Below are positions 8,306-22,048 of a stretch of DNA of 64,000 bases, in pieces. The notes under the pieces are model-generated. The model saw nothing but the letters and a program-made list of their open reading frames with translations. It had not been told where the DNA came from and searched no databases. Made by a program: the position numbers and the translations under genes. Position 1 is the first letter of the stretch, and each line of letters begins with the position of its first letter. Source of the DNA: Actinomycetota bacterium. Lineage in GTDB: Bacteria; Actinomycetota; Actinomycetes; S36-B12; UBA10799. Location: assembly GCA_020637055.1 (NCBI GenBank), contig JACJWR010000003.1, positions 393,550-457,549 on the forward strand, in the 5' to 3' direction.

Positions 8306-9529
8306 ATGCGGACCTCTGAATATTCGTCGGCGGATGCCGAGCGGCGTGCGCCGGAGCGGCCGAAACGACCTGTGCGCGATCCCTTCCGCCGGGACCGGGC
8401 GCGGGTGCTGCACAGTTGGGCGTTGCGCCGCCTGGCCGACAAGACCCAGGTGCTGCTCCCGGGGGAGTCCGATTTCCCACGCACCAGGCTGACTCACACC
8501 CTGGAAGTGTCCCAGGTCGCCCGCGAGATGGGTGATGAACTCGGCTGCGACCCGGATATCGTCGACACCGCCGGCCTCTGCCACGATCTCGGCCATCCGC
8601 CGTTCGGACACAACGGGGAGTCCGCGCTCGATTCGGTGGCGGCCGCCATCGGTGGCTTCGAGGGCAACGCGCAGAGCTTCCGGGTGCTCACGAGGTTGGA
8701 GCCCAAGGTCATTGTGAAGGGTCGGTCGATGGGGCTCAACCTCACCCGTGCCTCGCTCGACGCCATGCTCAAGTACCCGTGGTTCCGGCGTCCCGATTCG
8801 GTGAAGTTCAACGCCTACGCCGACGACGCCGAGGCCTTCGAATGGGTCCGTCGGGGGGCGCCGGTCGGCCGCCCGAGTCTGGAAGCCCAAGTGATGGATT
8901 GGGCCGATGACGTGGCCTACTCCGTGCACGACGTGGAGGATGCGCTCTATTCGGGATTCATTTCGCCGGAGCAGTTGCAGCCGGGGCCGGAGATGGAGCG
9001 CGTTGTCGCGGTGGCGGCCGAGCAGTCGGGCCCCGAGGTGGATGTGGCAGATGTGGTGCAGGCGCACGCCCGTCTGCGCGCCCTGCCCCAGTGGCCGACG
9101 GCGTTCGACCACACCTCGTCATCGTTGGCCGCCCTGAAGGCGTTCACCAGCACCATGATCGGCCGACTCTCGGCCGCTGCGGTCGATCACACCCTGGCGG
9201 CGGCCGCGGGTGGTCCGGTGGCCAGGTACCAGGCTGATCTGGTGGTGCCGCGGGAGCAGCGGGCGGAGGTCGCGCTGCTGAAGGCTGTCTCCAGCCACTT
9301 CGTCTTCAACCGACCCGGGGTGAGCCCGTTGTACGACGATCAGCGCGCGTTGCTCATCGATCTTGTCTCCGTCCTCAGAGAAGGGGCGCCGGATGCGCTG
9401 CATCCGATGTTCGCCGAACTCTGGCGGGAGGCACCGGGTGAGGAGGCGAGGTTCCGGGTGGTGATCGATCAAGTCGCCTCCTTGACCGATGTCTCCGCTG
9501 TGCGTTGGCACCGACGCCTGGTCGGCTGA
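8306..9529 (+). CDS. dgt: dGTP triphosphohydrolase-like HD-domain protein
   Basis: Motifs FRRDRARVLHS.ALRRLADKTQV, TRLTHTLEVSQVAR and HDLGHPPFGH are present. Start set at ATG 8306. The gene sits upstream of dnaG as usual. Confidence 0.85.
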   Translation: MRTSEYSSADAERRAPERPKRPVRDPFRRDRARVLHSWALRRLADKTQVLLPGESDFPRTRLTHTLEVSQVAREMGDELGCDPDIVDTAGLCHDLGHPPFGHNGESALDSVAAAIGGFEGNAQSFRVLTRLEPKVIVKGRSMGLNLTRASLDAMLKYPWFRRPDSVKFNAYADDAEAFEWVRRGAPVGRPSLEAQVMDWADDVAYSVHDVEDALYSGFISPEQLQPGPEMERVVAVAAEQSGPEVDVADVVQAHARLRALPQWPTAFDHTSSSLAALKAFTSTMIGRLSAAAVDHTLAAAAGGPVARYQADLVVPREQRAEVALLKAVSSHFVFNRPGVSPLYDDQRALLIDLVSVLREGAPDALHPMFAELWREAPGEEARFRVVIDQVASLTDVSAVRWHRRLVG

Positions 9530-12999: not shown

Positions 13000-13261
13000 A
13001 GGGTCACGATCCGTACTGCCTGTGGCTAGCCCAACCGGGCTGTCAGGTGCACCCCGATCATGGTGAGGCCGCGCCCACATGTGCAGGTGGCGGCGGTGGC
13101 CGCCCAAGCAGTGGCTGGCGGCAGTTCACTTCAGTATCCAAAGGACTAGCCGCAGGGATTGGACATGCCTGGAGCCAAAGAGGTGGTCTTGGGGTCGATG
13201 CCGGAGGTCAGAGCGAACGCGACGATGAGCGCGGTGCTGTAGGTCGAGTCATACGCCTTCT

Positions 13262-13287
13262 TGGGTGTAAGACCTGGGTGTAAGACC
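13262..13287. repeat. 13-bp tandem direct repeat x2 (tgggtgtaagacc)
   Basis: Two exact adjacent copies, 25 bp outside the left island repeat. Confidence 0.85.
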
Positions 13288-13312
13288 ATCTGCTGTCAAG
13301 ATTCGGACCTTT

Positions 13313-13374
13313 GAAACCGCCCCTGAGCTGCGCTAACAGTAGGGCGGGTGGGACTCGAACCCACGACCTGCCGG
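13313..13374. repeat. left att-type direct repeat (displaced tRNA-Met 3' fragment)
   Basis: gaaaccgcccctgaGctgcgctaacagtagggcgggtgggactcgaacccacgAcctgccgg matches 21987-22048 with about 4 differences. Confidence 0.8.
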
Positions 13375-13502
13375 GTCAAGGCGCAGTGTTTCTAGACGTA
13401 TCCTGATGTATCCGCAGTGGGTTGCGATCCAACCGCTGACCAGGGCAAACAGTGTCCGAGTGAGTCTGCGCGTCTCAGGACGTGAAGTCGGCGCGGAATG
13501 CA

Positions 13503-13520
13503 GGAGTCCTGTAGGACTCC
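13503..13520 (-). terminator. perfect palindrome/hairpin just downstream of the last minus-strand island gene
   Basis: ggagtcct-gt-aggactcc has 8-bp arms and is nested in an outer ggaatgc/gcattcc pairing. It lies about 30 nt after the stop of 13552..13902. No U-tract. Confidence 0.35.
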
Positions 13521-13551
13521 CTGTAATCCGACCGCAGGTGGCATTCCGACA

Positions 13552-13902
13552 TCACCGCCGTTCGTCCTCGCGCCACTTCCGCAGCGTGGTGCGCGAGATT
13601 CCCGCCAGCCGGGCCGCCTCGACCTCCGACAGCGCCCCCCGGCGCACAGCGGACAGCACCACCCGGCGCAGGTCATCTTGCTCACGGTCGTAGCGTTGCC
13701 GGGCCTTGGCGGTGCGCTTGGCGTTGGCGCTGATGGTGCCGTCGATGACTTGCTGCGCCAGTTTTGGGTCATCGCGTTTCAGTCGGGCGATGATGTAGCC
13801 CGCATCGTGCTCACGCCTCAAGTTGGTAATACCAACTTGCCCTGTCCGGTCCCCGCCGTGTTCGGCTGCCGGGGCGATGTCCTCGGCGAGCATCCGACGC
13901 AC
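13552..13902 (-). CDS. HTH DNA-binding protein, unknown role
   Basis: It has the C-terminal HTH LSEVEAARLAGISRTTLRKW, and its N-terminal half reads GYIIARLKRDDPKLAQQVIDGTISANA. The 5' end overlaps palindrome P1, so the true start may be further downstream. Confidence 0.5.
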   Translation of the reverse strand: MRRMLAEDIAPAAEHGGDRTGQVGITNLRREHDAGYIIARLKRDDPKLAQQVIDGTISANAKRTAKARQRYDREQDDLRRVVLSAVRRGALSEVEAARLAGISRTTLRKWREDERR

Positions 13903-14165
13903 CGTTGCCGCAGCGGCCTTGAAGTGGGGTTGGTATTACCAACCCCTGCCTTGCTGTGTTGGTTGGTGCCGTTCTTGGCTGCCGGGGTGATATCCACCAC
14001 CTGGGTGAGGATTTCGGCGGCACGTTCGGGGCCGTCCGATTTGATGATCGCCGCAACCTCACGCGCCTGACGAGCGTTCGAGATGGGAACCGGTGACATG
14101 TCACCGATCGCGGTAGCAGCGCTGGCAGCAGTGATGAACTCCCGAGCGCGGCGATCATCAAATCC
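13818..14165 (-). pseudogene. degenerate, frameshifted copy of the HTH-module gene
   Basis: It encodes ...DDRRAREFITAASAATAIGDMSPVPISNARQAREVAAIIKSDGPERAAEILTQV, paralogous to the C-terminus of 14308..15006. The expected ERWGF codons read gaacgtgggga instead of gaacggtgggga, a 1-nt loss. 13998-14070 repeats 14371-14443 with 3 mismatches in 73 nt. Confidence 0.4.
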
Positions 14166-15070
14166 CCACGTTCGAGTCGTACTGCCGCGAACGGTGGAAC
14201 TTGGCCCGCAGGACCGCCTACCAGTTGATGGAAGGCGCGGAGGCGGTGTGCGCCATGGCGCACATCACGCCGGTTCCGATCACGAGTGGAGTTAGTATTA
14301 CTAACTCCTACCTTGGTGTGTTGGTTGCTGCGTCGCGGATGGCTTTGGCTGTGACGGGTCCAGACTCGGCCACCTGGGTGAGGATTTCGGCGGCGCGTTC
14401 GGGGCCGTCGGTTTTGATGATCGCCGCAACCTCACGCGCCTGACCCTCATTCGCGATGGTGGGTACATTTGTACCCACCGACTCCACCGCTGTGACAGCC
14501 TCCGACGCGGCAATCATCTTGTTGGCGTAGTTGCGCTGGAATCCCCACCGTTCGCGGCAGTACCCCTCGAACGTGGCGTACCCCTCCAGCCGATACAGGC
14601 GCCCGTCACGAATCCGGGCCAACGCCTGACCCTCGTTTGTGACCGGAACAATTGTTCCGATTTGCCCCACGGCGTCGGCCGCCTCGATCATCTGCCGGGC
14701 GCGCCGATCAGTGAACCCCCACCGTTCGCGGCGGTACGCCTTGTCGAGCGCCACGGTCCCGGCGAGCACCTGGGGCAGCAGGTCGGTCCAGTCAGCGACC
14801 AAACCGCAACGCGCCAGGTCAAACCTCAAGTCATTCGATAGTTGCGGATCCGCAAGTATCGACCCGCGCGCCCACCTGCCGCTCTCGCGTTTCCCCTGAG
14901 CGATCAGCATCAACGCACGCCCAGCGGCCTGCTGATTCGACGCCGAGGGCGGCGCCGATCGCCCGCTGCCCCTTCGATAGATTCCGCCGGTCACCGTTCG
15001 CACCACTGGATCACCTGCCGGGCGTGACCGATGTAGCCGTTGGTGATGCCCGTGTGTGTACTAAGTACAC
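13819..15070. repeat. array of eight perfect palindromes (15-24 nt)
   Basis: The eight sites are 13819-13839 caagttggta-a-taccaacttg; 13926-13946 ggggttggta-t-taccaacccc; 14090-14105 cggtgacatgtcaccg; 14288-14308 ggagttagta-t-tactaactcc; 14458-14479 ggtgggtaca-tt-tgtacccacc; 14644-14659 cggaacaattgttccg; 14842-14855 ttgcggatccgcaa; 15056-15070 gtgtact-a-agtacac. Confidence 0.85.
14308..15006 (-). CDS. DNA-binding protein with two tandem HTH-like modules (RERWGF..R.A..MI.A..AV...GT.VP..NEGQA)
   Basis: Internal repeat: YRRERWGFTDRRARQMIEAADAVGQIGTIVPVTNEGQA and CRERWGFQRNYANKMIAASEAVTAVESVGTNVPTIANEGQA. The start may be the internal ATG near 14910. Confidence 0.5.
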   Translation of the reverse strand: MVRTVTGGIYRRGSGRSAPPSASNQQAAGRALMLIAQGKRESGRWARGSILADPQLSNDLRFDLARCGLVADWTDLLPQVLAGTVALDKAYRRERWGFTDRRARQMIEAADAVGQIGTIVPVTNEGQALARIRDGRLYRLEGYATFEGYCRERWGFQRNYANKMIAASEAVTAVESVGTNVPTIANEGQAREVAAIIKTDGPERAAEILTQVAESGPVTAKAIRDAATNTPR

Positions 15071-15125
15071 GCGTGGACTCTGGCCTCAACGCGGCGAGCA
15101 TCGCCCGCTGACCCTTCGACCTGGG

Positions 15126-15413
15126 CTACATCACCCGCTGCGGCGGCCGCTTGCCGTACAACCGCCACGACGTCCGCCGCCGCGACGCGGCTGCGACACG
15201 CTCGGCCGGCAGCAGGCCGGCGCGGATCCCGAACCGCAGCGACGACGGAAGGCCATCCTCGAGTCGAAGCGCATCCGCCAGGCACTCGGCGCGAACTCCG
15301 CACCCGGCGCAGATCGCCTTCGCCGCCAACTGTTCAGGCGGCCGACCCGCGAACCACAGGTCGAGGTCCGAACCCACACACGACGCGTCGTCTTGCCAGT
15401 TCCCAGGCTCCAC
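15126..15413 (-). CDS. WhiB-family transcription factor
   Basis: Four Cys in WhiB spacing: DDASCVGSDLDLWF...AKAICAGCGVRAEC (C-x2-C-x5-C). I chose the GTG start at 15413; the listed ORF extends to 15461. Confidence 0.8.
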   Translation of the reverse strand: MEPGNWQDDASCVGSDLDLWFAGRPPEQLAAKAICAGCGVRAECLADALRLEDGLPSSLRFGIRAGLLPAERVAAASRRRTSWRLYGKRPPQRVM

Positions 15414-15563
15414 CCGCCCACAATAGCCGCCACAACGCCCGTGGGCACGGCTACAACGCACGCAGACGCCCGACAGGTGTATCCGGTAGGGTCGCCGCCT
15501 TCGACGCTTCTACGGGCGTCCTGCGGCGACGGGGGGTTTCGCCGGAGGTGGCGGGTATCGTTG

Positions 15564-15755
15564 TCACCGGAGATCCTCTCCATCTCCAGCGCGGTCGAGC
15601 GAGGTCGCCATCGCTCCCGCGAGAGGCTCCACCAACCGGGTCGTGCTGGCCTCGGTTGGTGGAGCCTCACCCTGGTGAAACGGGCAATATCCGTTCGCCC
15701 ACCTCCCGATGAACGGGCAGGCTCGGACGCTGCAACGGGCTACGGGTGACTTCAT
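15564..15755 (-). CDS. small Cys/His-rich (zinc-finger-like) protein
   Basis: 63 aa: MKSPVARCSVRACPFIGRWANGYCPFHQ... Confidence 0.4.
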   Translation of the reverse strand: MKSPVARCSVRACPFIGRWANGYCPFHQGEAPPTEASTTRLVEPLAGAMATSLDRAGDGEDLR

Positions 15756-16149
15756 GCTGGAATGCCTCTCAGTGTGCGCGGGAGCGGCCTAGGACGGCCT
15801 CTGCGCCCATGTTGGTAGGTGTGTGACCCCTCGCCCGTTCGTCGCGTCTGCGGCCCGTTGGGCGTATGCTGGGGGCGCATCTCGCAGCGATGTAACGCGG
15901 CCCCTCCGACTCGACCACGGAGGGGCCGCTTCGCGTCCGTGCCCAGCGTCGGGGTCTGGATCCGCCGCGACGCCCAGCCTGCCGAGGCTCACTGTCCCAA
16001 CCCTCAACCTCGGGTTGAGACTTCTGGATACGCCGCGACGATCAGGCTCATCCCGCGCCGCCCCTAGTGGCTGCCACGGGAGGGGCATCCCCCCTCGGGG
16101 GTGAGGGTGACGGCCCCGAGACTCGGAGCCGCCACCCTTCCGCGCCCGG
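15756..16149 (-). other. hairpin-rich, apparently noncoding segment (candidate ncRNA or origin)
   Basis: The only long ORF (15789..16166, minus) has third-position G+C no higher than the local base composition by my hand count. Stable stems include gcggcccctcc/ggaggggccgc (15896-15928), ctcaacc/ggttgag (16003-16019), and gggtgacgg/ccgccaccc with one G-U pair (16105-16136). Confidence 0.3.
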
Positions 16150-16929
16150 TCAGTCGAACGACCCACGCGGCCCGTCGCCCCTGTGCGTGAGGGACTTCCT
16201 CAGCGCACGCTGCAACGTCTCCGTGGCCTTCACGCCGTTGCGTTGCAGCGCTCGCCAGTCACCTGCGAGCGTGCTCCACTCGCTCGCAACGGTCTGAGCA
16301 AGTCGAGACACGATCTGTCGATCCTTCCCGCTGTCCACGAGTTGCTGGACTTCCGTGACGAGTCGCTGACGTGCCGAGACGTACTCGGACGCGACTGGGA
16401 TCGGGAGGTCGGGCAACTTCGCCCGCGTCGATGTCTGCGCGTGCGGTGGTGTGGCGACCACACGCACGAGATCCAGACGCTGTGCCAGCACAGCCTGGGC
16501 GTCGGCAGCGGCCTTGTCGGCAGCGGCCTGCTTGCGCTCCCACGCCTTCACGGCGGCCACGGCAGCGACCTCGGCCTGGCCCAGCACAGCGTCGGCAGCC
16601 TCGCCCAGCGCGGCGTGCAGCGCCCACCAGCGCCGGGTCACGAGGTCGGCCTGCACAGCCTGGAACCGCTCGGCTGTCGCGAGTGCTTCCTCCAGCCGCC
16701 AGGTGTCGTTGCGCACGCTGGCGAGATCCTCCCCGGCCTCGGCAGCGGCGCGCAGCGCCTCGGCGTATGCGTCCGGCGCGGCAGCGTGTGCGCGTCGCGC
16801 CTCGGCCACCTTCACGTTCGCAGCCTTCAGCGCAGCGACCGCGTCCTGCAACGCGGCGTAGGCGTCCGTGACTGGGGTCGGCAGGTCGAGTCCAGACAGG
16901 TCTGGGGCGGCGTATCGGGTGCTTGTCAT
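16150..16929 (-). CDS. hypothetical Ala-rich, probably all-helical protein
   Basis: A 259-aa ORF overlapped by the upstream gene. I recognised no motif. Confidence 0.5.
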   Translation of the reverse strand: MTSTRYAAPDLSGLDLPTPVTDAYAALQDAVAALKAANVKVAEARRAHAAAPDAYAEALRAAAEAGEDLASVRNDTWRLEEALATAERFQAVQADLVTRRWWALHAALGEAADAVLGQAEVAAVAAVKAWERKQAAADKAAADAQAVLAQRLDLVRVVATPPHAQTSTRAKLPDLPIPVASEYVSARQRLVTEVQQLVDSGKDRQIVSRLAQTVASEWSTLAGDWRALQRNGVKATETLQRALRKSLTHRGDGPRGSFD

Positions 16930-17198
16930 TCTGAGTACCTCCGGTTGGGGTCGAGCAGGTGTCGTAGTTGGCCGGATTCGTGCAGGCGCACGATCTCTTC
17001 GGGCGCGAGTCCGCGCAGCCCGGCCCTCGTGATCCGCCCCTCGGCGTCGCGTTCCGGTTTCGTGCGCCCGGCGAGCAGGTCGTCGAGTTGCCCGAGAGTG
17101 CGGGCGCGTTCGATCTGCTCATGGTCGAGTCCACGCAGGTCGTCCCTCGTGAGTTGGGGCGGGCGGCTCTTGCCGCTCGGGTCGATGTAGTCGGTCAT
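16926..17198 (-). CDS. hypothetical protein with an internal duplication
   Basis: From ATG 17198: MTDYIDPSG.... It has two copies of (L/I)TR..LRGL..E.I.R....GQL..LL. Confidence 0.45.
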   Translation of the reverse strand: MTDYIDPSGKSRPPQLTRDDLRGLDHEQIERARTLGQLDDLLAGRTKPERDAEGRITRAGLRGLAPEEIVRLHESGQLRHLLDPNRRYSE

Positions 17199-17241
17199 CG
17201 GTGTTTCCTTTCGTTGGTTGTGAGGACGGTCTTCTTGGTTG

Positions 17242-17646
17242 TCATCGGGCAGGTTCTTTCGCGAGTTCGTCGGCCACCGAGTTGATCTCCTTCGCACGAT
17301 CCGGCGATCCGCCAACGTCGGGATGGAACACGCGCATGAGTGCGGCTCGGAGTTTGGGTCGCAGTTCCGGCGAGCACTCTTGGAACGCCTCGCGTACCCA
17401 CGACGCACTTGAAGTCGTGGGTTTTGCTTTGCTCCCCGTGTCCGGCGTGACGACGGTGATCCCGACCGCGGTGAACGCCGCCTTGAGTGAAGGCCAATGG
17501 CCGGATTCGACGTACCAGCAGCGATCCAACTTGGACCATCGGCGGGCATACGCGGGCACCGTGCCCTTGATGATGTTGCGCGCCTCGTAGGGCGAGCGGA
17601 TCTGCCACTCGTTGCCGAGGGCCATCTTGGTTGCGGTGACGATCAC
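17242..17646 (-). CDS. hypothetical protein; N-terminal DUF5710-like pattern and a C-terminal J-domain-like HPD segment
   Basis: The N-terminal part reads WQIRSPYEARNIIKGTVPAYARRWSKLDRCWYVE, and the C-terminal part reads LMRVFHPDVGGSPDRAKEIN. Both assignments are from memory of the family patterns. Confidence 0.45.
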   Translation of the reverse strand: MIVTATKMALGNEWQIRSPYEARNIIKGTVPAYARRWSKLDRCWYVESGHWPSLKAAFTAVGITVVTPDTGSKAKPTTSSASWVREAFQECSPELRPKLRAALMRVFHPDVGGSPDRAKEINSVADELAKEPAR

Positions 17647-19019
17647 GAGGCACGCTCGCAGCGTTCGCAGCGGTTCCGACCTGGGACTACCAGGAGGATC
17701 GGGTTACCGCAGGTGTCGCACCTCGGCCGGTCGGATGACTCGGGTGTCACGGGTGTCACGGGTGTTTCCGAAGGCGCGGGTGACTCGGGTGTCACGGGTG
17801 TCACGGGTGTTTCCGAAGGCAAGTAGCGGGACCAAGGGTCTTCCAGGTCCGCGCGCCGATAGCCGCGATGCCTATCGGGGCCGTCCCGATCCTGCTTCGG
17901 CTTCACTCCGTACTGGCGAAGGCGACGCGACAGGTCGCGCGCGTCCAAAGCCTTACCCCTCAGGTCAGACCAAGGCTCCTCCTCCATCTCGTGCAGAGCT
18001 TTGATGATGACCTCGGTGGGCAGGTGTGCCGGGTTGCCCTTCGAGTTGAACACTGTCCGAAGCGACCCCAGCAGTCGCACGTTCAAACTGGTGGTGGAGT
18101 TCTCCTCTGCCGCCTTCACCATCGCCACTGCTGCGTCTCGGGCAAGGGTCGGCCACTCACCACCTGCCAGGTCGGCGATGGCGATCAGCGGCTCCCAGCA
18201 GTCCGCGTCCCTGTCTGTGATGACATCGGGCAGGTCGGGCCAGGTGTCGGCCAACGCTGGAAGGTGTGGGTTGAGCCAGTCGGCGAGGTCGTCTCGCAGA
18301 GCGTGACCTTCGGGTTCTTGACGCCGGCGGCGATACGGTTCCACCCGTTCCCCTGGGGCGCGTCTGCGCATCCGGATGACGATCGAGCGGGTCATGATCG
18401 TGTCCGGAAGGTCGTTCAGTCCGGCTAGTGCCACGGGGGCGAAGCAGGGGAAGGTTTCGATGGTGAACGTCTTTCCCGTCATCGCCACCCGCTGCGCGTA
18501 TCCGGAAGACCGGTATCCCGCGTTCACGAACCCGCGCAGGTCTTCGTGATCCTTCGATGCGCGAGGTCCGAACACTGTGTCCGCCTCATCGAGCATGATC
18601 GTTGGCCGGTCTACTACGAATCCGTCTTCGTCTGGGGTCATGGACCTGTAGAGCACTGCCACGGAGACGTTGAAGGTCAGCATCGGGTTGGGTGAAAGCA
18701 ACTCCAAGACTTCGAGGAGTCGAGTCTTTCCCGAACCGGGTTCGGGTGAGAGTGCCGCTAGCCGGGGTGTGGTGTCGAAGGCTTCGACTGCGTGGGCGTG
18801 GGCAACCCACAGGGTCGTTGCGGTGTAGGCGTGTTCGTCGGGTAGGACGGTGAAGCGCCTGATGAATGTCTCCACGTCTCCGAGTAGCCGCGCGCCTTCC
18901 GGGGTATCCGTGACATCCGTGACATCCGAGTCATCCGTGACCCGCGCGCCTTCCGGGGTATCCGTGACATCCGTGACATCCGAGTCATCCGGGTCTTGCG
19001 GTGCGGTGAAGGTCATCAT
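17643..19019 (-). CDS. DUF3631-type P-loop protein with a C-terminal zinc ribbon
   Basis: It has Walker A SPEPGSGKTRLLE, Walker B IMLDEAD and a C-terminal CDTCGNP...RCERCERAS. Repeated peptides sit at both termini. Confidence 0.75.
   Translation of the reverse strand: MMTFTAPQDPDDSDVTDVTDTPEGARVTDDSDVTDVTDTPEGARLLGDVETFIRRFTVLPDEHAYTATTLWVAHAHAVEAFDTTPRLAALSPEPGSGKTRLLEVLELLSPNPMLTFNVSVAVLYRSMTPDEDGFVVDRPTIMLDEADTVFGPRASKDHEDLRGFVNAGYRSSGYAQRVAMTGKTFTIETFPCFAPVALAGLNDLPDTIMTRSIVIRMRRRAPGERVEPYRRRRQEPEGHALRDDLADWLNPHLPALADTWPDLPDVITDRDADCWEPLIAIADLAGGEWPTLARDAAVAMVKAAEENSTTSLNVRLLGSLRTVFNSKGNPAHLPTEVIIKALHEMEEEPWSDLRGKALDARDLSRRLRQYGVKPKQDRDGPDRHRGYRRADLEDPWSRYLPSETPVTPVTPESPAPSETPVTPVTPESSDRPRCDTCGNPILLVVPGRNRCERCERAS
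17737..17820. repeat. tandem 45-nt units (1 full + 39 nt) containing 4 x GTCACGG
   Basis: gactcgggtgtcacgggtgtcacgggtgtttccgaaggcgcgggt is repeated. GTCACGG occurs at 17746, 17755, 17791 and 17800. Confidence 0.85.
18888..18989. repeat. tandem 54-nt units containing 5 x CCGTGAC, an inverted counterpart of 17737-17820
   Basis: ccgcgcgccttccggggtatccgtgacatccgtgacatccgagtcatc occurs twice. CCGTGAC occurs at 18908, 18917, 18935, 18962 and 18971. Confidence 0.85.
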
Positions 19020-19906
19020 GCGGCACCTCCGTTGGTGCCGTGCCGCATCCCAGACTTGATCGTGGCCGTCGCTTCACGCTCGGTGAGGCCCAACCGGACC
19101 GCCGTATCGGTGAGGCTGCGGTGAAGGTCGTCATCGAGCAGTCCGAGGACGGCGGCCCGCTTGGACGCCCAGAACAGTCCCGCGTTCCGGTTGCCCTCGC
19201 CTTGCCGCTCCAGCCACTTCACCAACTGGTCGCCGTCGTTGCCGCGACGGCCCGGCGTCCTCTTCGGCTGCGGGCGTTGCAGTCGCGGGGGGTCTAGCCG
19301 GTTGGAGATCGCCTCCACGTCGAGCGGTTTTGGGTCGCGAACGTGGTCGAAGTTCAACCACTTGTACCGGCCTGGTCCGTCGACGCCTTCATCTGCGGCG
19401 ACAGTGGACGGGGCGAGGAGGACGTATCCGCCTGCGGCCTTGATGTCGATCCGGTGGCGGGGAAATGATCGGCATCCGGAGCCGGACGTGGGGAAGAACA
19501 GGTGCTTGCCACCGTTGCGGGTTTCGGCCTCGGCGAAAGCGCCCGCGAGTAGACCGGCGCGGCCCAGTCGGCGAAGCGCGGCGAACCCGTCTCCGTCGAG
19601 CCGGACGTCCACGTCGAGCACGTCGAAGAAGACCCCGGTGGGTGTTCCGATGTTCGCTTCCGGCTCCGAAGTCCACCACCTTCGGATGGTGGCTACGTCG
19701 GTCGTGGCGTCTTTGAATCCGTGCGGGGCCAACCTTCCGATCGGTGCTTTCCCGCCCGGCTCGCAGGGGAAGACGGGCCATCCGGCTTTGACGTAGACGA
19801 GGGCAGCATCCGCGAGTTGGGGTACCCTTGTCTTGATCTTCTCGTCTTGGAGATCCTCGGCCGCCCGTGCTCCCCGGTGTGGGCGGCCTCTCCCTTCCCG
19901 GCTCAT
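19016..19906 (-). CDS. bifunctional DNA primase/polymerase (Prim-Pol) domain protein
   Basis: YVKAGWPVFPCEPGGKAPIG..HGFKDATTD...IGTPTGVFFDVLDVD...GGKHLFF is the typical Prim-Pol N-terminal domain. Confidence 0.8.
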   Translation of the reverse strand: MSREGRGRPHRGARAAEDLQDEKIKTRVPQLADAALVYVKAGWPVFPCEPGGKAPIGRLAPHGFKDATTDVATIRRWWTSEPEANIGTPTGVFFDVLDVDVRLDGDGFAALRRLGRAGLLAGAFAEAETRNGGKHLFFPTSGSGCRSFPRHRIDIKAAGGYVLLAPSTVAADEGVDGPGRYKWLNFDHVRDPKPLDVEAISNRLDPPRLQRPQPKRTPGRRGNDGDQLVKWLERQGEGNRNAGLFWASKRAAVLGLLDDDLHRSLTDTAVRLGLTEREATATIKSGMRHGTNGGAA

Positions 19907-20085
19907 CGGCAGCCCCCGGCGGAATCGGCGAACAAGGCTTCGATGGAATCGGCGAAGATGATCCGCCGCCGCCCTATCTGGGTGAACTCGATTCGACCCT
20001 CACGCATGAGTCGGTAGAGCGTTGCTCGGGAGAGCGTCGTCTTGCTGACCGCTTCGGTCACGGTGAGCGCTTCGCGCATGGTCAC
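19903..20085 (-). CDS. xis: excisionase / AlpA-like HTH protein
   Basis: 60 aa: LTVTEAVSKTTLSRATLYRLMREGRIEFTQIGRRRIIF. It sits in the usual xis position. Confidence 0.7.
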   Translation of the reverse strand: MTMREALTVTEAVSKTTLSRATLYRLMREGRIEFTQIGRRRIIFADSIEALFADSAGGCR

Positions 20086-20196
20086 TCCTTTCGTTGAGTG
20101 ACTTCACTTTCACTGATGTATGAGTGATCGGCATGTCAGTGATGCCAAATCAGTGAAACTCATGATTCACTCTGGCCCGTAGAGATCCGCAGTGAT
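20083..20196. promoter_or_regulatory. divergent switch region with nine AGTGA/TCACT pentamers
   Basis: This is a locally AT-richer intergenic stretch between xis (-) and 20209 (+). Pentamers occur at 20083, 20098, 20105, 20111, 20124, 20139, 20153, 20168 and 20192. Some are arranged as inverted pairs (agtga-ct-tcact; tcact-8-agtga). Confidence 0.45.
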
Positions 20197-20208
20197 ACAG
20201 TCCCTTTC

Positions 20209-20799
20209 ATGGGCACTGAAAACGGAGCGATTCCGGAAGTTCACTGGTCAATCGGATTCACCGGCAAGATGGCACTGATCCGCCGCAGAATCGGCGAGCA
20301 TGACCGGATCTTCGCGACGATCGCAGACAACGTGACCTTCACGGTCCTGCGGGCGGGCACCCGCATCGCCGAAGGCGCGGTGATTGTGGACGAGGCCGAT
20401 GGGCGGCTGGTCATCAGTGAGTACAGCGTCCGATTCCCCGAATCGAACCCCGACATCCTCTGTGCGGACTTCCTGCGATCCCTCACTGAAGGTGCCGCGC
20501 GGAAGTTGTTGGTGGAGACCCAGATCAACGGGGGCGAGATCAAGATTCCTGAAGGCTTGACCCGCAGCCTCGGGCGTGCAGGACTACCAGCTGCGATCGC
20601 ATCCGGATTCCAACGCAAGGAGCGACCGCGACTCTCGGATGAACTCTTGCGCGAAGTCCACTCGGTCTACGCCAGTGCCGAGGATCGCGCGCGACTGACG
20701 GCCGTCCGTAAGCACTTCGGGATCACCCAGTCGCGGGCGCAGAACTGGGTCGCAGCGTCACGCAAACGCCTGCCCGAACTGTGGGAGGTCTCGCGGTGA
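20209..20799 (+). CDS. hypothetical protein with a C-terminal HTH-like segment, coupled to the integrase
   Basis: A 196-aa ORF with C-terminal RLTAVRKHFGITQSRAQNWVAASRKRL. Its stop overlaps the integrase GTG (GTGA at 20796-20799). Confidence 0.55.
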   Translation: MGTENGAIPEVHWSIGFTGKMALIRRRIGEHDRIFATIADNVTFTVLRAGTRIAEGAVIVDEADGRLVISEYSVRFPESNPDILCADFLRSLTEGAARKLLVETQINGGEIKIPEGLTRSLGRAGLPAAIASGFQRKERPRLSDELLREVHSVYASAEDRARLTAVRKHFGITQSRAQNWVAASRKRLPELWEVSR

Positions 20800-21944
20800 G
20801 CCGTAGCCTGTGGAAGCGCAAGGATGGGCGTTGGGGCGGCGAGGAGCGCGTCCGCGACCCACGCACGGGCGGCATCGTCAAGGTGTCGGCCACGGCCCGC
20901 ACCCGCAAAGAGGTTGTGGCCCGGCTGGAAGGCCGCGCGCAGCGGGTGAAGGACCACAAGGCGCAGCGGGACTCCACCTGCACCTTCGCCGATGCGGCAA
21001 CGTCCTGGGCATCCTCTTTGGCCGACGTCGCCCAGTATTCGGCTACGACCCGCGAGTTGTATTCCGGGGACGTGCGACGCTACCTCGCCGATGGTGGCCT
21101 TGCGATCGGCGAGATCCCGCTGTCGAAGTTGCGCGGTTCCGACTTCGAGGATGCACTGGGAGAGATGAGGTCGCGCGGGTTGTCCGCATCGGTGCGTAGG
21201 CGGTTCCTCACAATCTCCAAGGCCATCATTCGGCGGGAGATGCGCGACGGCCGGCTCGGGTTCGACCCGACGCAGGGGGTGAACCGTCCCAAGTCCGATC
21301 CGATCCAGCCGAAGGCGCACACCGCTGCCGAGGTTCGCGAAATCCTGACCCGCACGTCGGGTACCCGCGTGGGCAACCTGGTGGTGTTCCTCGCCCACAC
21401 GGGCATGCGGGTTGGTGAGGCACTGGCCCTGCAATGGCCGGACGTGGACTTCGACGCTTCCACGGTCCGGATCTCCGGCACGTTGGTGCGGATCACCGGG
21501 GAGGGCGTCTACAAGGCTGCGACGAAGACGAAGGGTTCCAAGAGGACGGTGCCGCTGAACTCGTACGCGGTTGAGGCCTTGCGCCGCCAGGCGCAGATGC
21601 AGACAGCGGACGCCGAACGTGCCCACTCCAAGTACGAGTTCAGCGGGTACATCTTCACCGGCGACTTCGGCAACGTGCTCGACCTTCGCAACGCGTCGCG
21701 CGCCTACAAGGATGCACTCAAGTCCGACAGGGATGGGGAGTCGATCGAATCGTCTTTCCATCGGCTGCGGCATTCGTTCGCGACGTTGCTTGTGGGGACC
21801 GGGGAGTCCGCGAACACGGTCGCGGCGATCCTGGGTCACAACTCCACGAGGGTGACATTGGAGACGTACGCGGCGGCGCTGGACGAGTTCAAGTCGCAGG
21901 CTACGGACCGGCTCGGTTCCCTGTATGAAGCCGATTCCCTGTAA
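20796..21944 (+). CDS. int: tyrosine recombinase / phage-type integrase
   Basis: It has the N-terminal SAM-like region and the C-terminal catalytic pattern ...HTGMRVGEALAL..., HRLRHSFATLLV, LGHNSTRVTLETY. Confidence 0.9.
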   Translation: MSRSLWKRKDGRWGGEERVRDPRTGGIVKVSATARTRKEVVARLEGRAQRVKDHKAQRDSTCTFADAATSWASSLADVAQYSATTRELYSGDVRRYLADGGLAIGEIPLSKLRGSDFEDALGEMRSRGLSASVRRRFLTISKAIIRREMRDGRLGFDPTQGVNRPKSDPIQPKAHTAAEVREILTRTSGTRVGNLVVFLAHTGMRVGEALALQWPDVDFDASTVRISGTLVRITGEGVYKAATKTKGSKRTVPLNSYAVEALRRQAQMQTADAERAHSKYEFSGYIFTGDFGNVLDLRNASRAYKDALKSDRDGESIESSFHRLRHSFATLLVGTGESANTVAAILGHNSTRVTLETYAAALDEFKSQATDRLGSLYEADSL

Positions 21945-21986
21945 CTTCCCCTGTAACGGCCTCGCGGGTGGTTGTCGACCGGTGGT

Positions 21987-22048
21987 GAATCGCCCCCTGA
22001 CCTGCGCTAACAGTAGGGCGGGTGGGACTCGAACCCACGGCCTGCCGG
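21987..22048. repeat. right att-type direct repeat, overlapping the 3' part of the intact tRNA-Met
   Basis: Matches 13313-13374. Confidence 0.8.

Follow-up and report, generated by a model that had tools for sequence, protein, structure and literature searches.

A 64,000-nucleotide stretch of an Actinomycetota bacterium genome (contig JACJWR010000003.1, positions 393,550 to 457,549; referred to here as the window) carries a small integrative island, one end of which is crowded with short perfect palindromes. Our analysis indicates that four of these palindromes belong to a family-wide arrangement, in which a gene for an all-helical protein module contains, at a fixed codon position, a palindrome of its own. 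The sites exist, are selected at the level of the DNA, keep their position across the family and co-vary with one helix of the module in a chemically sensible way. Taken as a whole, this is probably best explained if the palindrome in each module gene is the site bound by the ParB/KorB/SopB-like helix-turn-helix (HTH) domain encoded around it. In the mechanism that we propose, a dimer of the module would bind the palindrome that is written into the loop codons directly following its own recognition helix, with helix residues 4, 5, 8 and 9 reading bases -8, -6, -7 and -4 of each half-site. Lying 5-10 codons from the reading helix, the site would keep protein and target together through phage, plasmid and island recombination, and helix and site could be exchanged as one cassette between otherwise near-identical proteins. 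The pairing of helix and site is tighter than an earlier, sequence-only reading of this stretch had supposed, as the site lies within the gene segment that codes for its own reading helix.

An exhaustive scan for perfect inverted repeats (arm of at least 7 nt, spacer of at most 2 nt) found 10 palindromes within 13503-15070, namely all eight at the centres listed by the sequence-only reading and two that it had overlooked (TGTGCGCCATGGCGCACA and GGAGTCCTgtAGGACTCC). In the segment 13500-15075, the 10 palindromes with arms of at least 7 nt compare with a mean of 0.49 in 2000 dinucleotide-preserving shuffles, the eight with arms of at least 8 nt with 0.125, and the four with arms of at least 10 nt with 0.009; 0/2000 shuffles attained the observed counts in any arm class. 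Other 1.6-kb stretches of the window contain at most three palindromes each. The earlier observation is confirmed, except that the remark that all centres are AT-rich fails at 14848, where the centre is GGATCC.

Four modules, M1 to M4, have one palindrome each at the same codon position, between a helix ending ..MI.AAE.V and a helix starting NE.QAR, within an all-helical module of motif ..TFE.YC.ERW-helix-loop-NE.QAR... The coding direction of the palindrome stretch is the minus strand, M4 excepted. The longest open reading frame (ORF), gene A (14308..15006, minus strand, 232 aa; the public call, P0001, has a later start and 164 aa), holds a partial M1 and a complete M2. The first helix and putative recognition helix of M1, YRRERW-GFTDRRARQMIEAADAV, are encoded at 14668..14736 on the minus strand and its site, CGGAACAATTGTTCCG at 14644..14659, codes for G-T-I-V-P; an M1-type helix with its site is also present in L013-15 (Plantactinospora) and L089. 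The N-terminal helices of M2, TFEGYCRERW and the putative recognition helix GFQRNYANKMIAASEAV are encoded at 14494..14622 (minus strand), followed by the site GGTGGGTACAttTGTACCCACC at 14458..14479 (in minus-strand reading GGTGGGTACAaaTGTACCCACC, coding for V-G-T-N-V-P-T), and the RNYANK of this helix is paired with GGGTAC in L006, L021, L033, L064, L098 and L111. M3 is a 5'-truncated module remnant (TWGFDDRRAREFITAASAA...AIGDMSPVPISNARQAREVAAIIKSDGPERAAEIL...; 13926..14171, minus strand) with the site CGGTGACATGTCACCG at 14091..14106, coding for G-D-M-S-P. M4 is an inverted module fragment without a start codon (TFESYCRERWNLARRTAYQLMEGAEAVCAMAHITPVPITS; 14168..14287, plus strand), head to head with M3, and has its site, the overlooked TGTGCGCCATGGCGCACA, at 14247..14264; its helix type is the same as in P0004 (L088) and in the viral locus L169. 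It had been noted correctly that three of the palindromes share the G-T-x-V-P position of the module and differ on both arms.

The module belongs to a large family. Gene A has 84 word-index homologues, and a profile search returned 19,358 clusters (50% identity) at E<=1e-3, of which 5,389 reached E<=1e-30. From GTDB genomes, 80 loci were fetched by the protein pattern TFE[DAG]YCxx[RAV]W alone; they yielded 77 distinct modules from at least seven phyla (Actinomycetota, Chloroflexota, Verrucomicrobiota, Planctomycetota, Cyanobacteria, Proteobacteria and Bacillota). A perfect palindrome with an arm of at least 7 nt stands at the module position in 90% of these 77 modules, compared with 4.3% of 90-nt windows drawn at random from their loci, and in 82% of 72 modules from an independent set of IMG/VR viral contigs. 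Palindromy is thus kept in homologues through changes on both arms, as had been anticipated, with 82-90% of 149 other module genes palindromic there. Alignment of 127 sites on their centres gives T(-9) G(-8) [G/T] N N [A/C] C(-3) [A/C] A(-1) with its mirror image, which corresponds to an 18-bp family consensus of TG-NNNN-CAATTG-NNNN-CA. All sites are paired from -7 to -3 (100%); the share drops to 94% at -8, 87% at -9 and some 30% further out than -10. In 114/127 sites the centre keeps one codon phase, and it lies about 97 nt downstream of the T in TFE. The site falls some 250-300 bp inside the relatives' ORFs, at about 270 nt when reckoned from a motif that begins at about residue 59 in 104 full-length proteins. 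Within some 12 kb of its module a site almost never recurs, which argues against arrays, iterons or dispersed operators.

Several family members carry more than one module (L024, L060, L080), and some proteins from the profile search have 2-3 matched stretches. In the second module of L024 the palindrome reaches 42 perfect bp (TGGCTGGTGCTTTGTCTCCAATTGGAGACAAAGCACCAGCCA) instead of the usual 18 bp, and other long palindromes occur in L108 (30 bp), L148 (28 bp) and L155 (26 bp). The Nostoc sp. PCC 7120 plasmid pCC7120alpha (L086, 7147-7173) carries AAAATGTCCACAAtTTGTGGACATTTT, a palindrome of 27 bp, in the usual place, and cyanobacterial plasmids carry 2-4 module genes each.

The evidence that ties each site to its own module comes from covariation. 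Helix positions are counted here from the invariant Trp and half-site bases are numbered negatively from the site centre. In the main comparison, in which the identity of variable half-site bases was set against the identity of protein segments across 116 modules, the half-site correlated with the eight helix residues after the invariant Trp (r 0.46), and did so neither with the 35 aa preceding the motif (r -0.02) nor with the 40 aa following the site (r -0.01). The partial correlation given both flanks was 0.47, with 0/1000 label permutations as high, and a smaller set of 36 modules, selected earlier and more strictly, yielded 0.56 (0/2000 permutations); this partial Mantel test is the sole control for the protein backbone. 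Mutual information (MI), with z-scores from simple shuffles, linked helix position 4 to bases -9 and -8 (z 10-15), position 5 to base -6 (z 20), position 8 to base -7 (z 25), positions 6 and 9 to base -4 (z 17 and 25) and position 3 to base -5 (z 8.5). The conserved hydrophobic positions 7, 10 and 11 gave no signal and positions 13 and 14 at most a weak one (z below 4), and the strong residue-base pairs fall on one helix face.

The resulting residue-base tables, which with the covariation tests cover 116-124 modules, are almost deterministic and match the classical contacts of Arg or Lys with G, Gln with A, and Asp or Glu with C. Arg at helix position 9 goes with C at -4 (G on the other strand) in 59/62 modules, Gln with A in 29/34, and Glu with G (C on the other strand) in 6/6. 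At position 8, Tyr goes with T at -7 in 37/37 and Arg with G in 21/21; Arg at position 5 accompanies G at -6 in 36/38, and at position 4 Arg or Lys accompanies G at -8 in 86/91 and Asp accompanies C in 12/12. The modules of the window were left out when these rules were derived, and they obey them in 16/17 instances (M1 5/5, M2 4/4, M3 4/4, M4 3/4). Between M1 (DRRARQ, CGGAAC) and M3 (DRRARE, CGGTG), a change from Gln to Glu at position 9 goes with a change from A to G at base -4, and this switch is what had been described as both arms having changed together.

Helix and site also move together between proteins. P0004 (L088) and P0005 (L089/L090) are nearly identical over their C-terminal 150 or so residues and differ in helix and site, P0004 combining LARRTAYNMI with TGTGCGCAATTGCGCACA and P0005 combining FSDRRARQMI with TCGGAACAATTGTTCCGA. 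This is a clean cassette swap, independent of phylogeny.

Joint exchange of this kind would also be seen under linkage without recognition, in which the palindrome is a recombination or crossover point, or the cis site of another protein, and is co-inherited with the helix. The broken cassettes of the window, which are joined at conserved flanks (RERWGF, NEGQA) and include an inverted one, and an orphan site fragment in L087 fit this alternative as well. However, the 40 aa after the site lie equally near and show no correlation with it, and hitch-hiking would not yield one-to-one residue-base pairs on one helix face that follow known contact chemistry. In addition, spacerless arms of 7-9 bp are short for the core sites of tyrosine or serine recombinases. 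We therefore consider linkage alone improbable, and recognition of the site by the module remains our preferred reading.

The symmetry of the sites is selected at the DNA level, as had been proposed, and synonymous resampling, the pairing profile and the use of reverse-complement codon pairs all support this. A simpler account would be that a conserved peptide such as G-T-x-V-P happens to be written in self-complementary codons. GGN ACN NNN GTN CCN is indeed self-complementary at codon positions 1-2, so the amino acids carry part of the symmetry, and resampling with local codon usage and fixed amino acids attained the observed arm in a median of 2% of trials per locus, with more at some loci. 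The peptide, however, is not conserved. The window sites encode GTIVP, VGTNVPT and GDMSP and those of relatives LGPIGPK, LSPIGDT, VTPIGVI, LVPIGTK, LTTIVVK and TGTMVPV, and the central residues (GPIGP, SPIGD, TPIGV, VPIGT, TTIVV, GDMSP) vary as reverse-complement codon pairs. Wobble positions are matched through codons that are rare in these GC-rich genomes, as in M1, which uses GGA ACA ATT GTT despite a GC content at third codon positions of 0.74-0.81 in window genes, and structural models place the segment in a loop. Peptide variation, resampling and pairing data effectively refute a coding by-product, to which we assign next to no probability, and indicate that the G-T-x-V-P peptide is itself dictated by the DNA.

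Selection could in principle act on the transcript instead, with the palindrome forming an mRNA hairpin that serves as an attenuator, an RNase III site or a translational pause; the sites do lie within transcribed coding sequence and in the same codon phase. Their symmetry is nevertheless continuous and perfect through the centre, leaving no loop, and among mismatches beside the perfect core 80/227 are of G:T type (35% vs the 33%, or one third, expected), an absence of excess that shows no tolerance of G-U pairs. Together, the missing loop and the missing G:T excess point to duplex DNA bound by a symmetric dimer and not to an RNA hairpin. We found no credible Rfam match at E<=1 in 13000-16000, no terminator-like sites in 13300-15600 and no promoter-like site in the palindrome stretch. 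As an RNA element would also leave the covariation with the HTH helix unaccounted for, it is a very unlikely explanation.

Structural modelling is consistent with a DNA-binding role for the module. AlphaFold2 (AF2) models of the residues encoded by 14308-14790 of gene A (predicted local distance difference test, pLDDT, 86.9) and of P0005 (pLDDT 91.1) are all-helical, and both place the palindrome-coded residues in a loop that joins the putative recognition helix to the helix after it. Foldseek searches of the PDB with weak E-values of 0.4-2.4 matched Noc-DNA (7ol9, probability 0.93), SopB(155-272) with its 18-mer (3mkz, probability 0.8-0.9, template modelling (TM) score 0.57 on the target), KorB-operator (1r71, probability 0.66, TM 0.61) and VirB-DNA (3w2a); P1 ParB (2ntz) was a further match without a significant E-value. 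The predicted fold of the module appears to resemble the DNA-binding domains of SopB, KorB, Noc and VirB, and the 18-bp palindrome and one-face covariation are what would be expected in silico for recognition of a 13-18 bp inverted repeat through an HTH helix. It had been suggested that the palindromes are binding sites for the HTH/ParB-like proteins of the stretch; residue-base covariation strongly supports this for the four module palindromes, and the apparent fold is in keeping with it, while the other six lie outside the module family.

Curated resources say little about the family. The module has no NCBIfam model, PHROGs offer no real family for gene A and its relatives, and ParBc-type Pfam domains (ParB/Srx, the CTP-binding N-terminal domain) are absent from gene A and 104 relatives. 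Structural matches of the P0005 model in BFVD were uncharacterised phage proteins, 'ParB-like' proteins and several DUF3102 proteins. The latter, encoded by phages and plasmids, have a similar helical layout and no described function; their structural matches are weak (E 0.03-0.7), and eight proteins of the module family gave no match to Pfam DUF3102 at E<=10. Searches of INPHARED GenBank phages by blastn and tblastn found no relatives, the tblastn searches with a window module and the family consensus having covered 50,697 genomes, whereas at least 129 IMG/VR contigs encode them. Cultured phages seem either to lack the family or to encode members too diverged for detection.

Several known systems share parts of this arrangement. 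SopB and sopC of the F plasmid (type Ia partition) are alike in that an HTH dimer acts on a short perfect or near-perfect inverted repeat; we found no significant sequence similarity between module and SopB, and presumably their recognition helices are unrelated. The F SopB consensus site, TGGGACCACGGTCCCA (PMC3177203), resembles family sites such as TGGGACCAATTGGTCCCA and TGGGTACCACGGTACCCA, and this is a resemblance only. Unlike SopB, the modules lack a ParB N-terminal domain, a SopA/ParA partner and a downstream tandem array, and their single site lies in coding sequence. KorB with OB of RK2, and VirB, are comparable in fold, in having a palindromic site and in being encoded on mobile elements. 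Both have a ParB-type N-terminal domain and several promoter-region sites, whereas the module domain occurs alone or fused to an enzyme and has its site within its own ORF. A binding site within the coding sequence of its own binder is found in Bacillus subtilis, where a parS lies inside spo0J/parB. This parS is one of several chromosomal sites with one conserved sequence, in contrast to the fixed codon position and co-evolving specificity of the module family.

In lambda O with ori-lambda, and in pac sites of small-terminase genes, a cis site lies in the linker-coding part of its own binder's gene and the pair stays linked in mosaic phages. The lambda ori consists of four iterons and an AT-rich region, whereas each module has one palindrome, no adjacent AT-rich block was seen, and the sites of the window modules all differ. 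Unlike the case of pac, a large terminase adjoins few relatives, and their context is that of an early, replication or recombination region. Self-regulation through a palindromic operator is also known from SsoII-type methyltransferases, in which an N-terminal HTH is linked to the DNA methyltransferase. Two reports on the C proteins of restriction-modification (RM) systems likewise describe an HTH that binds a palindromic operator and regulates itself (PMC2175313, PMC2632904). The operators of SsoII and C proteins, however, lie in promoters and their HTH is Xre-like, whereas the module site is inside the ORF, the predicted fold is ParB-HTH-like and most modules have no methyltransferase. The HTH dimer, the palindromic site and precedents for a site inside the binder's gene are thus known parts; the family-wide fixed codon position, the co-evolving specificity with cassette swapping and a large family without a curated model appear to be undescribed. 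Full-text literature searches found no description of a module with its own site, although their coverage was incomplete and this is no proof of novelty.

The genomic context of the relatives bears on what binding might achieve. Relatives occur in prophage early regions, beside cI/xis-like genes, RecT, SSB, RusA, helicases, DnaC-like loaders and DNA methylases, and in small islands, where they directly follow xis and precede Prim-Pol-helicase genes. PLSDB contains 131 plasmid records with relatives, mostly from Nostoc and Streptomyces and all annotated as 'hypothetical'. No gene recurs as a constant partner; at 74/98 loci the neighbour on the upstream side is encoded in the same orientation. 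CbiA/ParA/AAA_31 domains were found in 1/102 downstream and 2/98 upstream neighbours, and no ParA-type ATPase was found among the island ORFs scanned. The proposal of a self-encoded centromere is not borne out, given modules without a ParB N-terminal domain and a ParA-type ATPase beside 2-3% of relatives. Packaging signals, also suggested earlier, find no more favour, as a large terminase almost never adjoins module genes (Terminase_6N/Terminase_3 in 1/102 downstream and 2/98 upstream neighbours).

A role in replication initiation deserves closer consideration. The palindromes had been suggested to be hairpin-forming single-strand initiation sites, and hairpins or cruciforms could serve the Prim-Pol/DUF3631 replicase, with binding by the module acting as origin recognition. 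The island encodes both Prim-Pol and DUF3631, the module gene of L087 lies two genes upstream of a Prim-Pol-DUF5906 gene, and relatives are frequently beside helicases, DnaB, D5_N, RecT and SSB. Against this, there is usually one site per element with no adjoining iteron array, the feature accompanies the module across elements whose replication modules are of many kinds, and roughly one relative in three is a methyltransferase fusion. Separate iteron-like 9-mer arrays stand at both ends of the DUF3631 gene, and hairpin function alone would leave the covariation with helix residues unaccounted for. We regard an origin or priming function as a poor candidate.

The methyltransferase fusions were surveyed in 104 full-length proteins from L001-L170 (median 289 aa, motif at about residue 59). 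About 30/104 are fused to a DNA methyltransferase (Dam 20, N6_N4_Mtase 7, MT-A70 1, and others), with the module N-terminal; other C-terminal domains are DUF4326 (4/104) and DUF5131 (1/104), and the remainder have no Pfam domain. These fusions, together with the 6-bp palindromic centres (CAATTG, CCATGG, CAGCTG), raise the possibility that the centre hexamers are the target sites of the fused methyltransferases in a restriction-modification setting. The centre hexamers do not differ between Dam fusions and other or unfused proteins, however, conservation and symmetry span 18 bp with the variable part in the arms, and two thirds of the proteins, including those of the window, have no methyltransferase domain. 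Such a target is highly unlikely. Under the preferred reading, in which the module recognises the palindrome, the function would be cis binding to the element's own DNA. Binding might block transcription through the gene and so limit its own expression. Alternatively, it might tether the C-terminal part, which in roughly one relative in three is a methyltransferase, to the element. In silico support for the binding step is strong, and from it we infer self-regulation or effector anchoring as the consequence.

Several points weigh against this reading. Binding by the module is an in silico prediction, a single site in the middle of a coding sequence is an unusual location for an operator, and 6/10 palindromes of the stretch fall outside the module explanation, leaving four that are explained with confidence. 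The MI z-scores are inflated by shared ancestry, because simple shuffles were used. Foldseek E-values were weak (0.1-2.4), with an unrelated Raf1 alpha-domain ranked first. Neither gene A nor 104 relatives had a significant Pfam match (1e-3), the best being HTH_ParB (PF17762) at E=0.07 and 13.7 bits against a cut-off of 22.6 in 1/8 proteins tested, and PDB sequence searches with two profiles returned nothing relevant. Finally, M1 is without its N-terminal helices and M3 and M4 are truncated, so that at most 1-2 of the four window modules would make a functional protein, and the perfect palindromes of the window may reflect recent rearrangement instead of present function.

Recombination between cassette variants appears to have produced the arrangement in the window. 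M1 starts at ..YRRERWGF, with the usual N-terminal helices missing, and is joined to the complete M2 at NEGQA/LARIRDGRLYR. The 3' half of M3 is a 91% duplicate of that of M2 (13997-14086 vs 14370-14459), and the inverted M4 cuts M3 at ..TWGF. The related L087 island (a Logan contig encoding P0007 and a Prim-Pol-DUF5906 gene) has its own module site, TGTCCACCATGGTGGACA, and in addition an orphan 42-nt fragment at 8683-8724 that is 86% identical to 14223-14263 of the window. This fragment contains an M4-type palindrome, GTGCGCCATGGCGCAC, at 8683-8698, with no module gene around it. The extra cassettes of the window and such orphan sites may be targets for the module proteins of co-resident phages, or they may be debris. 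A more far-reaching and rather doubtful interpretation is that the modules are self-addressed, each gene in at least 19,000 clusters having its own address, and that the window island and L087 keep an array of cassettes and orphan addresses for cross-talk with phages or for specificity switching. The extra addresses could let the module proteins of co-resident phages recognise the element, be titrated or be sensed, as in helper-satellite cross-talk, and a specificity switch could operate through cassette exchange or inversion, M4 being inverted relative to M3.

The six remaining palindromes form a separate problem. As had been noted, three of them, the GTTGGTAnTACCAAC palindromes, have a common core, GTTRGTAnTACYAAC, and they make up a second class that sits in homologous repeat units of about 50-70 nt and varies by compensatory changes. 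The first, CAAGTTGGTAaTACCAACTTG at 13819-13839, lies in the 5' part of gene C (13552..13902, minus strand) and codes for Q-V-G-I-T-N-L with codons rare for the genome. The second, GGGGTTGGTAtTACCAACCCC at 13926-13946, is about 25-45 nt upstream of the gene C start. The third, GGAGTTAGTAtTACTAACTCC at 14288-14308, abuts the gene A stop codon and differs from the second by two compensatory changes; the repeat pair around these two (13923-13969 vs 14285-14331) is 85% identical. Gene C encodes a small protein with a C-terminal HTH (Pfam HTH_28/HTH_29 sub-threshold; PHROG HTH DNA-binding protein, 1.9e-5). As one GTTGGTAnTACCAAC site lies just upstream of it and one inside its 5' end, gene C is a candidate for the binder of this class, and the three sites most likely serve as operators for a different regulator of the island, perhaps gene C.

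Homologues add little to this picture. Two were found for gene C, of which that on contig L292 is 98% identical and uninformative; this contig retains 13819-13839, with CAAGTTGGTAaTACCAACTTG identical, 13926-13946 and 13503-13520, and its upstream sequence is unrelated. The distant homologue P0086 (L291) has no palindrome at the corresponding position, and an exact-pattern scan of IMG/VR for GTTGGTAnTACCAAC gave single, apparently random matches only. Of the other three palindromes, TTGCGGATCCGCAA (14842-14855) lies in the N-terminal part of gene A and codes for ILADPQL, GTGTACTaAGTACAC (15056-15070) lies within a short remnant ORF (SKGQRAMLAALRPESTRVLSTHTGITNGYIGHARQVIQWCER; 14994-15119, minus strand), and GGAGTCCTgtAGGACTCC (13503-13520), the conserved site in L292, is 32 nt past the gene C stop, near the island end. 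The three GTTGGTAnTACCAAC sites and those at 14848, 15063 and 13503, which the module family does not explain, can at most be called probable operators. For the remnant ORF around 15063 a homologue search found none, and a recollected 'KGQRA...LDxAY' family, which a regular-expression scan of the fetched loci did not confirm, was dropped.

The island spans about 13375-22048, some 8.7 kb. Its limits are marked by direct repeats of 63 nt corresponding to the 3' portion of a tRNA-Met gene (13312..13374 and 21986-22048, 92% identical), and the palindrome stretch lies at its att-distal end. To its left are the host genes dgt-like and dnaG. The island encodes a tyrosine integrase (20781-21944, plus strand) and, on the minus strand, an excisionase-like HTH protein (19903-20085), Prim-Pol (19016-19906), the DUF3631 protein (17643-19019) and a WhiB-like protein (15126-15461). 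The coding ends of the DUF3631 gene hold two 9-mer arrays, at 17732-17820 (a 45-nt unit x2, near the 3' end) and 18888-18991 (a 54-nt unit x1.9, near the 5' end). On one strand their 9-mers read GTCACGGAT and ACCCGTGAC, so the arrays are mutually inverted; they look like iterons, and the island origin may lie there. The WhiB-like ORF stops at a TAG (15126-15128), and its frame runs on into a remnant that has no proper start, PRSKGQRAMLAAL...QVIQWCER (14994-15125). A 29-nt piece of the remnant, 15091-15119, recurs at 14949-14977 (86%) inside gene A in another frame, which, with the remnant ORF, suggests that duplication and decay occurred in several rounds. An imperfect inverted repeat (15616-15638 / 15653-15675) with 23-nt arms, 87% complementary, and a 14-nt gap precedes the WhiB-like gene and gives spurious miRNA matches in Rfam.

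If the predicted binding is true, each member of the family would display its own cognate site from sequence alone, providing thousands of natural protein-DNA pairs for one fold and a near-deterministic code for a ParB-like HTH. Recognition codes could be learned and tested directly on such a resource, and orthogonal DNA-binding domains designed from it. In annotation, the internal 18-bp palindrome TG-N4-CAATTG-N4-CA offers a simple diagnostic of the family. Through such binding, an N-terminal domain common in the DNA methyltransferases of phages and plasmids would also receive its first assigned activity, and the question would arise whether those methyltransferases are anchored on, or self-limited by, their own gene. 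More broadly, the arrangement would represent a general way for mosaic genomes to link a trans factor with its cis site, by means of a tolerant loop beside the reading helix.

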